DNA of 32,000 nucleotides, taken from NCBI GenBank assembly GCA_964591795.1, contig CAZQEL010000006.1, positions 5,954-37,953 of the forward strand, given 5' to 3'. The first letter of the stretch is position 1; each line of letters opens with the position of its first letter. A program made the translations under genes and the position numbers. Below, in pieces: positions 5,024-9,245 of the stretch. The DNA comes from an uncultured archaeon (GTDB lineage: Archaea > Iainarchaeota > Iainarchaeia > Iainarchaeales > CSSED10-239). The notes under the pieces were generated by a model. It ran no database searches. It was not told the origin of the DNA and saw only the letters and a program-made list of their open reading frames with translations.

Positions 5024-7903
5024 ATGTCTGTTGAAAAATATAAACTTGAAAAAGAAAAAGATTTCTTTAAGGAAATGGAAAATACAAGAATAGTTGTAAA
5101 TGAAAATACTATTACTGATATTGAAAAAAAATTAAAAGAATCTAAAGAGCCTTCTATTAAAGAAGATGAATCTATATTAGAAGATGATACTTTAAATGAA
5201 GAAAAAGTTGTAACTAATAATAATTTAAATATAGACAAATCTACTGAAAATAATAATAATGACGAGAATAATAATAATGACAAAAATGATAATGATGATA
5301 TTGTTTCATCTGTTGTAGAAGATGTAGATTCAATAGATTATAATCTAGATGTTATTAAAGAACAAGATATTAAAGAAAAACAAGATGTTACAAAAGAAAT
5401 AAAAGAAACAATAGATAATTATAAAAAAAAAGAAATAAAAAAAGAAATTGTTTCAGATAATATTAAACCTCAACTTAAATTTTTAGAAGATTTTGAAGAT
5501 CCAAGTTGTGTATACTTAGGGCGTAAAAAATCAGTTTTGAAACAATATGGTAAAATAGCTACAGCATACATTGGTAAGGTTGCTGAGAATCAACAAGAGG
5601 GTAAAAAAGTACACATTGATGGGCTAAATCCTCACGTAATCTTCTTGGATGGTGCAAGAGGAACTGGTAAGAGTTACCTTTTAGGTGTGATTGCTGAAGA
5701 GCTTGCATTAACTAATCCTTATATTGGACAAATTGTAATAGATCCTGTTGGTGTTTTTTGGTCAATGAAGTTTCCAAATAGAGATACTAAAGAATTAAAA
5801 ATTTTAGAAGAATGGGGTCTTAAACCACAAGGACTTAAAAATATTAAAGTTTTTGTTCCAGAAGGAATTAAATCTCAAGTTTCAAAAGATACCTATGATG
5901 ATACATTTTCAATGTACCCATCTTTGTTAACTCCAGAAGACTGGTGTTTAACATATGGTATTGAAAGATTTTCTCCATCAGGTCTTCTTTTAGAAAAAAC
6001 ACTTGCGTCTGTAAAGAAAGGTTATATTACTGGCGGTACAAAAGATGTACCTGATGTTAAAAAAATATCAGCAAAAGGAAATCATTATAGTTTAGAAAAT
6101 ATAATAGATTGTTTACAAAATAATTCTGAATTTCAATCAGCTCAAAAAGGATATAAACCAGATTCAATAAGAGCATTGGTTTCAAGATTTGAAGCTGCAA
6201 GATCCTGGGGTATTTTTTCAAATTCAGGAACACCTCTTTCAAAATTATCACGAGAAAACCAATTAACTGTTCTTGATACTTCTTTTTTAGATGAAAATAT
6301 TACAGCATTAGTAATTGGTATTTTAGCTAGAAGAATTTTATCTGCAAGAAAACTTTTAGCACGTCAAGAAGCTGTTAAAAAATATGAGGATTCTGAACAA
6401 AAAGCAGAAGAACTTTTAGAAATTGAAATTCCACCTACATGGATGTATATTGATGAAGCACACACCTTAATTCCATCTGGTAATTCTCAAACACCAGCAA
6501 CTGCTGGAATTATTGAATATGTAAAACAAGGAAGAAGACCTGGTTGTTCATTAGTATTTGCAACACAACAACCTTCAGCAATTAACACTAAGGTATTGTC
6601 TCAAGTAGATATATTAATTTCGAATAAATTAGTTTTTAATGATGATATTTCAGCTATTCAGAAAAGAATGCCTACAATTATTCCTAAACAATATAAGGAA
6701 CCAAATTTTATAAAAACATTACCTTTTGCAACTGCACTTGTTGGTGACAGGTCAGAAGAAACTTCAAGAGCATTTATTTTAAGAGCAGTTCCACGTAAAT
6801 CTCAACATGAAGGTCGTGATGCTGAAACAATCAGAGAAATTCCTAAGAAGACTAAATCTGAAGTGCTTAAAATTGTAGGAAATTTAATTTATAAAAAACT
6901 TGAAGAAACAAAGGAAATAAAAGTAAGTTTTGCAAAAGATATTTTAGATATTGTAAATATTAAATATAGATCTGATGCTTATTGGGATGAAGTTTTAGAA
7001 AAGCTTTTTGAAAAGAAAGTAGTTTTAGAAAAAGAATTACTTTTTTTAAACACTACATTTATGGATGAAAAACCTGTTGAAAAAACAGTTTTAATTGATG
7101 AAAATAAATTGAATGAATCTGATGAAGTTTTAGAAATGTCTGAAACTTTAGATGATAATAAACTGGTTTTTCAAAAAGTTAAAACTAGAACTACAATTGT
7201 TGAAAGAATAAGTAAAAGTACAATTGAAGAAATGGCAAAATCAAAAATAAGTAGTATATTTTCAATTTTCAAGCCAAAGGAAACAATTCAAACTATTGTT
7301 TTATGGTATCGTGGTGTATATAAGTTAAATTATAATTTATATGATGATGATGAAAATTATAAAAAAATGAACTGTTATGTTGATTCAGTTACTGGTGAGT
7401 TAATTCATTTTAAAAATGGAGAATTTAAAATTTCAAAAGGATTAAGTGTTTTAGAATATATAGATTCTGATGATGTTGAATTATTATATCTTTTAAAAAA
7501 GCAACACACTTTATTTTCATTAAATCAAGAAACAAACATTTTAGAAAAAGACTTAATTCCAAAAATAGATGTTTTTAAAGAATATAAATTAATAAACATT
7601 AAAGAAAATAATAATAGAGAAATATATAAGTTGTCTGAAAATTTTGATGTTCCATTTGATGCCTCTCTATCTATTTTAAGTTCTTTAGAGGTTTTACCTT
7701 TAAAAAAGCAAGATGTTGAATTTTTAGAAGGAATTAATTATTCTTTATTAAAAATACAAGATTTATTAAATAAATTATGGGGAGAAATTGAGTTTGTGTT
7801 AACTGAAGAAATATTTTGGCCTATTTGGCATATTACTTATGTTGATTCTAAAAATAACTCTAGACTTCTAAGGATTGATGCAATTACAGGAAAAGAAATG
7901 TAA
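5024..7903 (+). CDS. HerA/DUF87-type P-loop ATPase with long N- and C-terminal extensions
   Basis: 959 aa. Walker A is LDGARGTGKS (5651-5674) and Walker B is WMYIDEAH (6440-6463). The HerA-type arginine region is GRRPGCSLVFATQQPSAINTKVLSQVDILISNKL. The first roughly 165 aa are low-complexity and rich in E/K/N/D. About 350 aa lie C-terminal to the ATPase. Confidence 0.8.
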   Translation: MSVEKYKLEKEKDFFKEMENTRIVVNENTITDIEKKLKESKEPSIKEDESILEDDTLNEEKVVTNNNLNIDKSTENNNNDENNNNDKNDNDDIVSSVVEDVDSIDYNLDVIKEQDIKEKQDVTKEIKETIDNYKKKEIKKEIVSDNIKPQLKFLEDFEDPSCVYLGRKKSVLKQYGKIATAYIGKVAENQQEGKKVHIDGLNPHVIFLDGARGTGKSYLLGVIAEELALTNPYIGQIVIDPVGVFWSMKFPNRDTKELKILEEWGLKPQGLKNIKVFVPEGIKSQVSKDTYDDTFSMYPSLLTPEDWCLTYGIERFSPSGLLLEKTLASVKKGYITGGTKDVPDVKKISAKGNHYSLENIIDCLQNNSEFQSAQKGYKPDSIRALVSRFEAARSWGIFSNSGTPLSKLSRENQLTVLDTSFLDENITALVIGILARRILSARKLLARQEAVKKYEDSEQKAEELLEIEIPPTWMYIDEAHTLIPSGNSQTPATAGIIEYVKQGRRPGCSLVFATQQPSAINTKVLSQVDILISNKLVFNDDISAIQKRMPTIIPKQYKEPNFIKTLPFATALVGDRSEETSRAFILRAVPRKSQHEGRDAETIREIPKKTKSEVLKIVGNLIYKKLEETKEIKVSFAKDILDIVNIKYRSDAYWDEVLEKLFEKKVVLEKELLFLNTTFMDEKPVEKTVLIDENKLNESDEVLEMSETLDDNKLVFQKVKTRTTIVERISKSTIEEMAKSKISSIFSIFKPKETIQTIVLWYRGVYKLNYNLYDDDENYKKMNCYVDSVTGELIHFKNGEFKISKGLSVLEYIDSDDVELLYLLKKQHTLFSLNQETNILEKDLIPKIDVFKEYKLINIKENNNREIYKLSENFDVPFDASLSILSSLEVLPLKKQDVEFLEGINYSLLKIQDLLNKLWGEIEFVLTEEIFWPIWHITYVDSKNNSRLLRIDAITGKEM

Positions 7904-7938: not shown

Positions 7939-8238
7939 ATGACTATTACAGAGAAAGATTTTATACAAGATACTTGTAAAGCAACCCCTGGGTTTGAATA
8001 TTATCCTAAAAAATTCACTGAAATTAATGTTTCTAATCTTTTAGATTTATTATATAAAAATGAGTTTTATATTTCTAAAGATAATTCTCCATTTTATATT
8101 CATGTTAAAAAAAAGGATCTTGAAGCAACAATTTTTTCCTCATTAAAAATAATTATTAAAAATATTACTGAGGAAGATGTTGCTACTAAATCATTTAACA
8201 CTATTTTAAAGTTTGCAAATAAGATTTTAGATGGTTAA
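7939..8238 (+). CDS. hypothetical small protein (weak resemblance to a single TBP-like half-domain)
   Basis: 99-aa ORF 35 nt downstream of the HerA-like gene on the same strand. The segment FYIHVKKKDLEATIFSSLKIIIKNITEEDVATKSFNTILKF lines up loosely with AIIRIHNPKVTILLFKNGKMICAGAKSEGDIKKSITAVKKL of the TBP in this window. Confidence 0.45.
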   Translation: MTITEKDFIQDTCKATPGFEYYPKKFTEINVSNLLDLLYKNEFYISKDNSPFYIHVKKKDLEATIFSSLKIIIKNITEEDVATKSFNTILKFANKILDG

Positions 8239-8240
8239 TT

Positions 8241-9245
8241 TTAACTAATTTTTTTTAAAATTTTCACCATTCTATCATTTACTTCTTTTTTTTCTTTATT
8301 TTGAATATATTTTTTGTGTCTGTTTATTATTTCTTTTTTTGCAGCAGTAATTATTCGTGTTTCATTAATTATTGCTTTTTTAATTGTGTTTATTCCCATA
8401 TCGGTTGGAGAAAAATAATTGTGCATATAATTTTGTTTTGATACTATTTTATTTATTATTTTTTTTAAAATTTTAAAATTTTCAATGTCTCGATTATAAT
8501 TAATTGAAATAACTCCATATTTTTTTAAGTGATACAGATCTATTTGATTTATATCTCCAATATCGGCAGTTGCAGCTTCATAGGCTAGGTTAATAGGGTG
8601 GTTAAGTGGTAGATTAAAAACAGGAAATGTTTCTGATTTAAAATAACCTGAATTAATATTTTTTTTAGAATCCAAATAAATTTGTGCAAGGCAAATACCC
8701 ATTTTTCCTGAATTTGCAACAGGCCCAATAACTATATTTATTTTTTTATTATTATTAATGTATGGTTGTTTAATGTATCCTTCTTTTCCAAGTATTTCAT
8801 TAAGGTCATTTGGATAATTTTTAATTGGTTTTGAAAAATAAACTTTGATTTTTTTCTTTGTAAGTTCTTTTTGAAATATTTTTCCAGAATTTTCATTTTT
8901 GTATCTTGTAATAACTACATCGATTTGTGGAAATTTTTTTTGTAATGTGGTTATTTCTTTTAAAACAAGTTCTTTAAATTTTTGATTGCTGTTATATTCT
9001 CTGCCATTTTCTAAATGTTTTGAAAAAATACAGTATATAACTCCAACATCTTTTTTTAATTTTTCTAAAATTTTAATTTTGGTATTTTTTTTATAATCAA
9101 TTAATACTCTATTAGCATGATAATCATGTAAAAGATGACCTCCAAACTCAAGGTAGGTTTTATCAAAGTGTTTTATTCTTTTTTTAATTTCCTTAACTTG
9201 TAAGTCAATATATTTATTTTCATCAAATGCAATTTTTTTTTTCAT
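8241..9245 (-). CDS. UPF0371/DUF1846 family protein (short form)
   Basis: The N-terminus FDENKYIDLQVKEIKKRI..FDKTYLEFGGHLLHDYHANRVL is characteristic of the family. So are SGYFKSETFPVFNLPLNHPINLAYEAATADIGDINQIDLYHL and INYNRDIENF...SPTDMGIN. It is 334 aa, against roughly 490-500 aa in the bacterial members I remember. Confidence 0.8.
   Translation of the reverse strand: MKKKIAFDENKYIDLQVKEIKKRIKHFDKTYLEFGGHLLHDYHANRVLIDYKKNTKIKILEKLKKDVGVIYCIFSKHLENGREYNSNQKFKELVLKEITTLQKKFPQIDVVITRYKNENSGKIFQKELTKKKIKVYFSKPIKNYPNDLNEILGKEGYIKQPYINNNKKINIVIGPVANSGKMGICLAQIYLDSKKNINSGYFKSETFPVFNLPLNHPINLAYEAATADIGDINQIDLYHLKKYGVISINYNRDIENFKILKKIINKIVSKQNYMHNYFSPTDMGINTIKKAIINETRIITAAKKEIINRHKKYIQNKEKKEVNDRMVKILKKIS

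Follow-up and report, generated by a model that had tools for sequence, protein, structure and literature searches.

What does an archaeal ATPase of the HerA type do when none of the familiar HerA partners is encoded beside it? This question is raised by an open reading frame (ORF) of 959 amino acids at positions 5024..7903 (+) of a 32,000-nucleotide stretch of DNA from an uncultured iainarchaeon (the window, meaning the whole stretch that was analysed; G+C ~24%), which is situated on contig C6 of an assembly comprising 917,599 bp in 75 contigs with a completeness of 88.75%. A first-pass annotation, made from the sequence alone, had described the gene as an orphan HerA/FtsK-like ATPase with a disordered N-terminus and a duplicated C-terminal module, and had suggested that it may be a new effector or sensor fusion; the ORF and all of the motifs that it quoted are present in the translation of 5024..7903. 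Through the ORF, its match to Pfam DUF87 and its homologues, the whole gene can be assigned as a HerA-superfamily ATPase and as the long form of an Iainarchaeota family: it is a member of an archaeal P-loop ATPase family, conserved but uncharacterised, within the HerA/FtsK superfamily. The function that we favour, and which we consider reasonably probable, is that of a hexameric motor for nucleic acids which carries its own binding domains and serves a housekeeping role.

Distribution of the ATPase family

A word-indexed search returned at least 434 homologues, many of them full-length at 43–75% identity, and a match to the gene was present in 197 of the 201 genomes sampled from the Iainarchaeota, including all 58 of high quality, and in 74 of 76 genera, so that its description as an orphan has to be abandoned. 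Across the order, identity amounts to 43–47% over ~85% of the length. The gene is chromosomal, is inherited vertically and is nearly universal among the Iainarchaeota. Most genomes yielded two matches, the long form (usually one copy each) and a core-only paralogue of ~435 amino acids; a 431-amino acid example of the latter (G000:C7:15002-16294; L002 1480-2775) exhibits 34% identity to residues 162-603 of the long protein, and the paralogue was found in 79 of 81 genomes. The genome also contains a canonical HerA candidate, a 518-amino acid open frame with a DUF87 score of 100.7 bits (contig C18), together with NurA on contig C7. Since both this candidate and the short paralogue are present, the 959-amino acid protein is a third, separate DUF87 ATPase.

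Many long copies appear as open frames of 1400–1530 amino acids that match only from residue 215/216 onwards. In homologue P0116 the junction reads GARGSGK/C...N/SYVLG: this is an intein within Walker A, between K216 and S217. Inteins are preferentially located at conserved positions in essential proteins of information processing. Long copies carrying an intein at the GK/S position of Walker A were seen in G032, G123, G008, G112, G003, G114, G135, G049, G094, G190, G079, G153 and G168, and the short paralogue likewise bears a GK/S intein in G062, G006, G008, G005, G055 and others. The short paralogue of the nearest relatives (Forterrea-type G006 and G062) is thus among the intein-bearing ones; both copies of the window genome are intein-free.

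Outside the phylum, as judged from the source names of the records only, a core-only search retrieved proteins of 650–800 amino acids with 45–55% identity from Micrarchaeota, Methanofastidiosia, Methanomicrobia, MSBL1 and Jordarchaeaceae (Asgard).

The ATPase core and its flanking regions

All conservation figures given here refer to an alignment of 30 full-length homologues, on which the AlphaFold2 model of the whole protein was also built (mean predicted local distance difference test score, pLDDT, of 73). The ATPase core (residues 210-605; 5651..6838, +) is recognised by Pfam, with DUF87 reaching 45.4 bits against a cut-off of 23.2. It contains Walker A (G210-S217, GARGTGKS; nucleotides 5651-5674), Walker B (Y475-H480, YIDEAH; 6446-6463) and the motif GRRPGCSLVFATQQPS (G503-S518; 6530-6577), all three of which are invariant or nearly so. 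Comparison of the model with the PDB using Foldseek yielded 97 matches at E ≤ 0.001. HerA-type ATPases fill the first 50 places, led by Sulfolobus HerA (4d2i; E 7.5e-16, template modelling score 0.59-0.61 when normalised to the target); HerA-NurA from Thermococcus (9x1m) is also among the best matches. By sequence, the PDB offers only remote anti-phage HerAs that are matched around Walker B, and it holds no solved structure of any member of this family. With Walker A and B motifs on a RecA-like core recognised by DUF87, and with its three-dimensional likeness to solved members, the core belongs to the superfamily; the earlier description of it as HerA/FtsK-like is upheld by the DUF87 score, the invariant motifs and the Foldseek matches.

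Canonical HerA-NurA(-Mre11-Rad50) systems (4d2i, 9x1m) share with this family the P-loop fold, DUF87, the Walker A/B and sensor motifs (Foldseek E ~1e-15) and, by analogy, presumably also the action as a hexameric DNA motor. The differences are nevertheless considerable: identity to the best HerA structures is 14-17%, there is no NurA in the operon, with the HerA-like gene and NurA lying elsewhere in the genome, the segment before the core is short (~60 amino acids) and apparently not a full HAS-barrel, and the family adds a disordered N-terminal tail, two winged-helix regions and two PepSY-like modules. The pre-core segment (residues 150-209; 5471..5650, +) is beta-rich, with four strands in the model (residues 162-165, 180-186, 195-199 and 205-209) and with G166-R-K168, D199 and N202-P-H204 being invariant; going by the model, its ~60 structured residues possibly represent a reduced HAS-barrel.

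Behind the core, the first-pass annotation had rightly recognised a C-terminal extension but had missed the helical, winged-helix-like region with which this extension begins (residues 606-678; 6839..7057, +). Here, the model exhibits three helices (residues 611-629, 634-648 and 654-663) and two strands (666-669 and 672-675) at a pLDDT of 83-90, and N645-x-K-Y648 and L661 are conserved. It is followed by an acidic disordered linker (residues 679-718; 7058..7177, +) with a pLDDT of 30-40 and a net charge of -7, which is variable in the alignment.

The C-terminal unit

The C-terminus is formed by a three-part unit: a first PepSY-like module (residues 719-806, ending in YVDSVTGELIHF; 7178..7441, +), a winged helix-turn-helix (wHTH) domain of the TrmB/MarR/ArsR type (residues 807-875; 7442..7648, +) and a second PepSY-like module (residues 876-959, ending in RIDAITGKEM; 7649..7900, +). 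The two motifs from which a duplicated module had originally been proposed (residues 757-796, nucleotides 7292-7411; residues 929-959, nucleotides 7808-7900) are the ends of these two homologous modules; the modules themselves had thus been seen, but not the winged helix between them. Residues 715-959, modelled alone on an alignment of 36 sequences, gave a pLDDT of 95 and a predicted template modelling score of 0.89, in which a strand-helix-three strands fold occurs twice, before and after a winged helix made of three helices plus a hairpin; module 1 is modelled at a pLDDT >90. Both copies therefore fold alike, and comparison of the module 1 and module 2 profiles by hhalign (94.9%, E 4.1e-8, 56 columns spanning the helix and the hairpin) confirmed the duplication.

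The resemblance to PepSY holds in part. PF03413 exceeds its gathering score of 24 bits on module 2 of the homologues P0100 (29.1) and P0117 (33.0), and Pfam PepSY matches 4 of the 30 members at E ≤ 0.01, whereas the 959-amino acid window protein itself has no match to PF03413 at E ≤ 1; hhalign and the model add to the assignment of module 2, whilst module 1 is tied to PepSY solely via its homology to module 2. PepSY domains as known from protease propeptides and YpeB (PF03413) are the same small helix-plus-sheet modules ending in ..D..TG... Classical PepSY domains are extracytoplasmic; in this family, by contrast, the ATPase is cytoplasmic and ends in a winged helix with one copy on either side. 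In case of the wHTH, the homologues match Pfam TrmB (11 of 30), HTH_27 (5 of 30) and MarR (3 of 30) at this site, the profile finds MecI/BlaI in the PDB (2.7e-5) as well as AdcR and ArsR, and Foldseek returns CzrA/SmtB with a root mean square deviation of ~2 Å over 67 columns: profile and fold both place residues 807-875 in the TrmB/MarR/ArsR clan. As a whole, the three-part unit remained unmatched in the PDB by Foldseek at E ≤ 0.001, with the wHTH alone being recognised, and a viral fold library gave generic wHTH matches only. Pfam, PDB profile and Foldseek searches revealed no enzymatic domain in the C-terminal tail.

An exhaustive hidden Markov model search with the C-terminal unit retrieved 391 representative clusters (183 at E ≤ 1e-10), in which the unit always stands at the C-terminus; its hosts are either DUF87 ATPases, including a compact class of 506-530 amino acids, or free-standing proteins of 170-335 amino acids. 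A natural separation of the unit is seen on a Methanofastidiosia contig (L098), where the gene is split: a 655-amino acid ATPase stops just past module 1, and an overlapping gene of 174 amino acids encodes the wHTH and module 2 (hhalign against the C-terminal unit 96.6%, E 5e-10). From its hosts and from this split gene it follows that the unit is dedicated and separable: it is a family-specific, rigid accessory that is only fused to, or encoded right after, this group of ATPases. A 190-amino acid ORF after the gene at locus L133 was considered as a second split and rejected, as it shows no likeness to the C-terminal unit; L098 is the only verified split. Members of the compact DUF87 class with the PepSY-wHTH-PepSY unit (P0326, P0334, P0344, P0361 and P0318) lack the ~170 residues that lie between Walker A and Walker B in the long family.

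No paper on the architecture of this family was found in the literature; Makarova et al. 2014 (PMC4158269) name a HerA-like protein (arCOG00280) and a PepSY protease separately, not as one architecture. The first-pass annotation had allowed that the extension could map to a well-described domain combination common in housekeeping archaeal HerA paralogues: common to such paralogues it is, but no paper describes it.

The N-terminal tail

The first 149 residues (5024..5470, +) form a hydrophilic acidic tail (27% hydrophobic residues; K 16%, E 15%, N 14%, D 13%; net charge -17) with pLDDT <50 at residues 1-29 and 40-144. The E/K/N/D low-complexity stretch of ~165 amino acids described before the core is seen here as a disordered tail of ~149 amino acids, and its length ranges from about 57 to 418 amino acids among Iainarchaeota orthologues. 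A Methanofastidiosia homologue does not have the disordered tail and starts at the core.

Although the disordered N-terminus had been noted, the conserved motif at its tip had been overlooked (D13-F-F-K-E-M-E19; 5060..5080, +). The family consensus is D-[LIMF]-F-[DE]-[DE]-[VA]-[FL]-G-x-D-E-E, F15 is kept in at least 90% of the 30 homologues, and a strict regular expression finds the motif in 59 of 74 distinct Iainarchaeota sequences, with near-variants in most of the others. Because this peptide is conserved whilst the length of the tether varies, we read it from its sequence as a candidate short linear docking motif. Within the tail, an N/D-rich stretch is encoded by an imperfect AAT-rich tandem repeat (window 5247-5298; period of 18 nucleotides, 2.9 copies, 85% matches).

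Genomic neighbourhood

The ten flanking ORFs that were scanned include no NurA, Mre11 or Rad50, which bears out the earlier statement to this effect, and the neighbourhoods of homologues revealed no nuclease, Sir2 or DUF4297 neighbour. A conserved neighbour does exist, however, and had gone unnoticed: a gene directly downstream that encodes a 99-amino acid single-repeat TBP-fold protein (7939..8238, +). The profile of this family matches TBP in the PDB (2z8u, E 8.4e-9) and aligns to either repeat, Pfam TBP (PF00352) is found in 11 of 16 family members (best 5.4e-6), and an invariant Cys13 and an N-terminal F-E-[FY]-x-P-K motif characterise the family. A single-repeat class of TBP-domain proteins is already known from some Euryarchaea (TbpA etc.; Brindefalk et al. 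2013, PMC3597702), and the 99-amino acid neighbour similarly consists of one TBP repeat and is of similar size; it is nevertheless a distinct family and is linked to the ATPase, a link that is undescribed for TbpA.

The TBP-fold gene is present in 142 of the 201 Iainarchaeota genomes. In 27 of the 88 loci examined it is the next gene (+1) on the ATPase strand, whilst comparison of coordinates shows it to follow the ATPase immediately in 34 genomes (18 of family f1, 13 of f9, 2 of f8 and 1 of f23) and to lie 2.5-9 kb downstream on the same contig in ~27 further genomes; it is absent from the flanks of five non-Iainarchaeota loci. In the window, the gap of 35 nucleotides between the two genes contains no oligo-T run, and a T8 run (8249-8256) lies past the TBP-fold stop codon: judged from this arrangement, the two genes are probably co-transcribed. 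TATA-like strings are ubiquitous at this G+C content, which is why co-transcription can be called no more than probable. On the opposite strand, a convergent gene of 334 amino acids (window 8241-9245, -) matches Pfam "DUF1846, N-terminal" over positions 1-324 of 333 (E 1e-99); its stop codon lies 2 nucleotides from that of the TBP-fold gene, and the T8 run falls in its last codons and could terminate the ATPase transcript.

Other recurrent neighbours within the phylum are convergent UDP-N-acetylglucosamine (UDP-GlcNAc) genes, glmS- and glmM-like by sequence. The synteny with glmS/glmM-like genes speaks for an inherited gene order, not for a function.

Proposed function and alternative explanations

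In the mechanism that we propose, the ATPase would, like its superfamily kin, form a hexameric ring that is powered by ATP and travels along nucleic acid or pumps it, the substrate most likely being double-stranded DNA. Binding or selection of this substrate, or of a partner, would fall to the two winged-helix regions together with the PepSY-like pair, which may thereby stand in for the nuclease or effector that other HerA systems have as a separate subunit. The flexible acidic tether of the Iainarchaeota proteins, ending in the conserved D-x-F-[DE]-[DE] peptide, could recruit the motor to a partner or cell site, and in several families of the phylum the probably co-transcribed single-repeat TBP-fold protein may work with it. 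The role would lie in chromosome biology, be it segregation, replication or repair, or the removal of DNA-bound proteins, and not in phage defence.

Several points weigh against this proposal. The hexamer and the DNA substrate are drawn by analogy from the superfamily alone, and a literature search gave no biochemical or genetic datum for any member of the family. The wHTH and module 2 of the window protein are each net acidic (-5), and for this reason may bind protein rather than DNA. With respect to the TBP-fold protein, the window's own 99-amino acid copy has no Pfam TBP match at E ≤ 1, and the gene is unlinked in family f7 and in most of f6, so that a partnership with the ATPase is not genomically obligatory. 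Finally, no neighbour is conserved outside the phylum: among the five loci available there, CDC48 and a GHMP kinase each occur at two, and a Hel308-like helicase at one.

A more specific version of the housekeeping motor is an FtsK-like, division-coupled chromosome translocase, in which the tip peptide on its long flexible linker would dock the motor at the divisome, the motor would clear DNA from the septum and the wHTH would read DNA in the manner of FtsK gamma. FtsK and SpoIIIE belong to the same superfamily and their layout is comparable: an anchor, a long disordered linker, the motor and a C-terminal winged helix, with the tip motif taking the place of the anchor here. Encouragement by analogy comes from Haloferax volcanii, where HVO_1301, a protein with a HerA domain, is found at midcell and cross-links to CdpB1 of the divisome (bioRxiv 10.64898/2026.07.16.738847), and at the non-DPANN locus L133 the gene lies ~2 kb from Orc1/Cdc6, SepF and a ParA/MinD gene, albeit as one case. 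Yet there is no membrane domain in this family, Pfam FtsK_SpoIIIE (PF01580) matches only 2 of the 30 members weakly (best E 0.0038) and not the window protein, HerA is a closer match than FtsK in both fold and sequence, and PepSY-like modules are not known from FtsK. Moreover, the tether and tip motif are missing from the homologue outside the Iainarchaeota that was examined, and FtsK-like docking is therefore not the ancestral mode of the family. Taken together, we regard such a translocase as rather unlikely, and more doubtful still is the full version, in which the family would be the archaeal functional counterpart of FtsK: a HerA-derived DNA pump recruited to division or segregation, in Iainarchaeota by the tip peptide on its acidic tether, with a unique PepSY-wHTH-PepSY clamp that recognises DNA and a single-repeat TBP-fold cofactor. 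If true, this would supply a division-coupled chromosome-clearing motor, none of which has yet been identified in FtsZ-based archaea.

The direct downstream position of the TBP-fold gene in genomes of four families, and its proximity in others, would also suit a remodeller of DNA-bound proteins, with the ring loading, stripping or recycling a TBP-like or winged-helix factor and the acidic tail mimicking DNA for the concave face of its partner: the N-terminal tail is acidic, with an acidic-hydrophobic peptide at its end, and the C-terminal tail carries a TrmB-like wHTH. Against this, linkage is lost in several families and absent outside the phylum; the analogy to Mot1/TAF1 acting on TBP is functional only, as Mot1 is a Swi2/Snf2 ATPase and not a ring P-loop pump. 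We consider this explanation improbable. Less probable again, and by our estimate very much so, is an ATPase for secretion, DNA transfer or viral packaging (VirB4, TraG, terminase), serving exchange with a host or left behind by a mobile element. The superfamily does include such pumps, DPANN archaea depend on host cells, and weak PHROG matches to the terminase large subunit (3.8e-8, partial) and to phrog_7035 were obtained. However, the protein is devoid of transmembrane segments, a conserved membrane partner is not encoded beside it, tblastn against 50,697 phage records gave no match, the gene is syntenic with housekeeping genes such as glmS, glmM and cca, and the neighbours of the short paralogue are not conserved; with PHROG matches being partial and the viral folds found being generic wHTHs, an origin from a virus or mobile element was rejected. 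An anti-phage HerA system with a fused sensor or effector extension, as had been suggested at the outset, is the explanation to which we give the least credence. The solved structures nearest in sequence are indeed anti-phage HerAs (Sir2-HerA/Nezha, DUF4297-HerA and TdpAB; 8xau, 9c1m, 8wiv, 8ziq, 8wet; E 5e-6 to 0.09), which likewise combine a ring ATPase with an accessory module, and PADLOC recognises part of the core with its HerA models and with mad8 (best E 3.7e-16 and 1.3e-14). These likenesses are nonetheless confined: the structures match over ~90-140 residues around Walker B, the PADLOC models only in the Walker-B/sensor region (376-503 of 576 profile positions), and the NCBIfam models NF042943 and NF042944 score 32.7 bits (cut-off 850) and 28.4 bits (cut-off 800), falling short by >750 bits. 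In contrast to the anti-phage systems, the accessory part is fused and free of any enzymatic domain, no nuclease, Sir2 or DUF4297 is encoded nearby, and the near-universal, syntenic spread at 45% identity is housekeeping-like, the opposite of a patchy defence island. With its matches partial and sub-threshold and with no phage match, the defence reading was rejected and the suggested effector or sensor fusion of this kind finds no support; the accompanying view that the protein fits neither NurA-HerA repair nor the Sir2/DUF4297-HerA pairs is borne out by the missing neighbours and by anti-phage models that remain far below their cut-offs.

The housekeeping motor thus remains the function that we prefer. 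DPANN genomes are tiny and keep little beyond essentials, and from the retention of a 2.9-kb gene in them we derive an unrecognised core function: kept by nearly all Iainarchaeota at ~45% identity, intein-bearing and with methanogen and Asgard kin, the gene points to such a function of the archaeal chromosome. It also represents a new way of building a HerA machine, with a fused non-enzymatic unit of PepSY-like, wHTH and PepSY-like domains and not a separate nuclease or NADase, and cytoplasmic PepSY-like modules thereby gain the context of a nucleic-acid motor.

Further observations

In the lineage of the window genome, the start of the short paralogue overlaps the end of a 226-amino acid multi-pass membrane ORF (L002 803-1483); as a membrane partner for the paralogue this ORF was rejected, since only close relatives possess it and, among 30 loci, the paralogue has no conserved neighbour. 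At the MSBL1-type loci L099 (7033-8004) and L134 (4952-6004), the GHMP-kinase gene overlaps the ATPase start by 4 nucleotides, which is a lineage-specific arrangement, and the Methanofastidiosia contig encodes, ~5 kb upstream of the ATPase, a protein that matches DUF2226 weakly (L098 1960-3120). The archaeal gene was also encountered on contigs titled Peregrinibacteria, Falkowbacteria and Chloroflexi bacterium (L041, CAMTXJ010000014.1; L054, JAFCBY010000010.1; L058, JAFCCG010000001.1), and these records have probably been mis-binned or mislabelled; one contig seems to have been deposited twice under different names, as L041 and L042.

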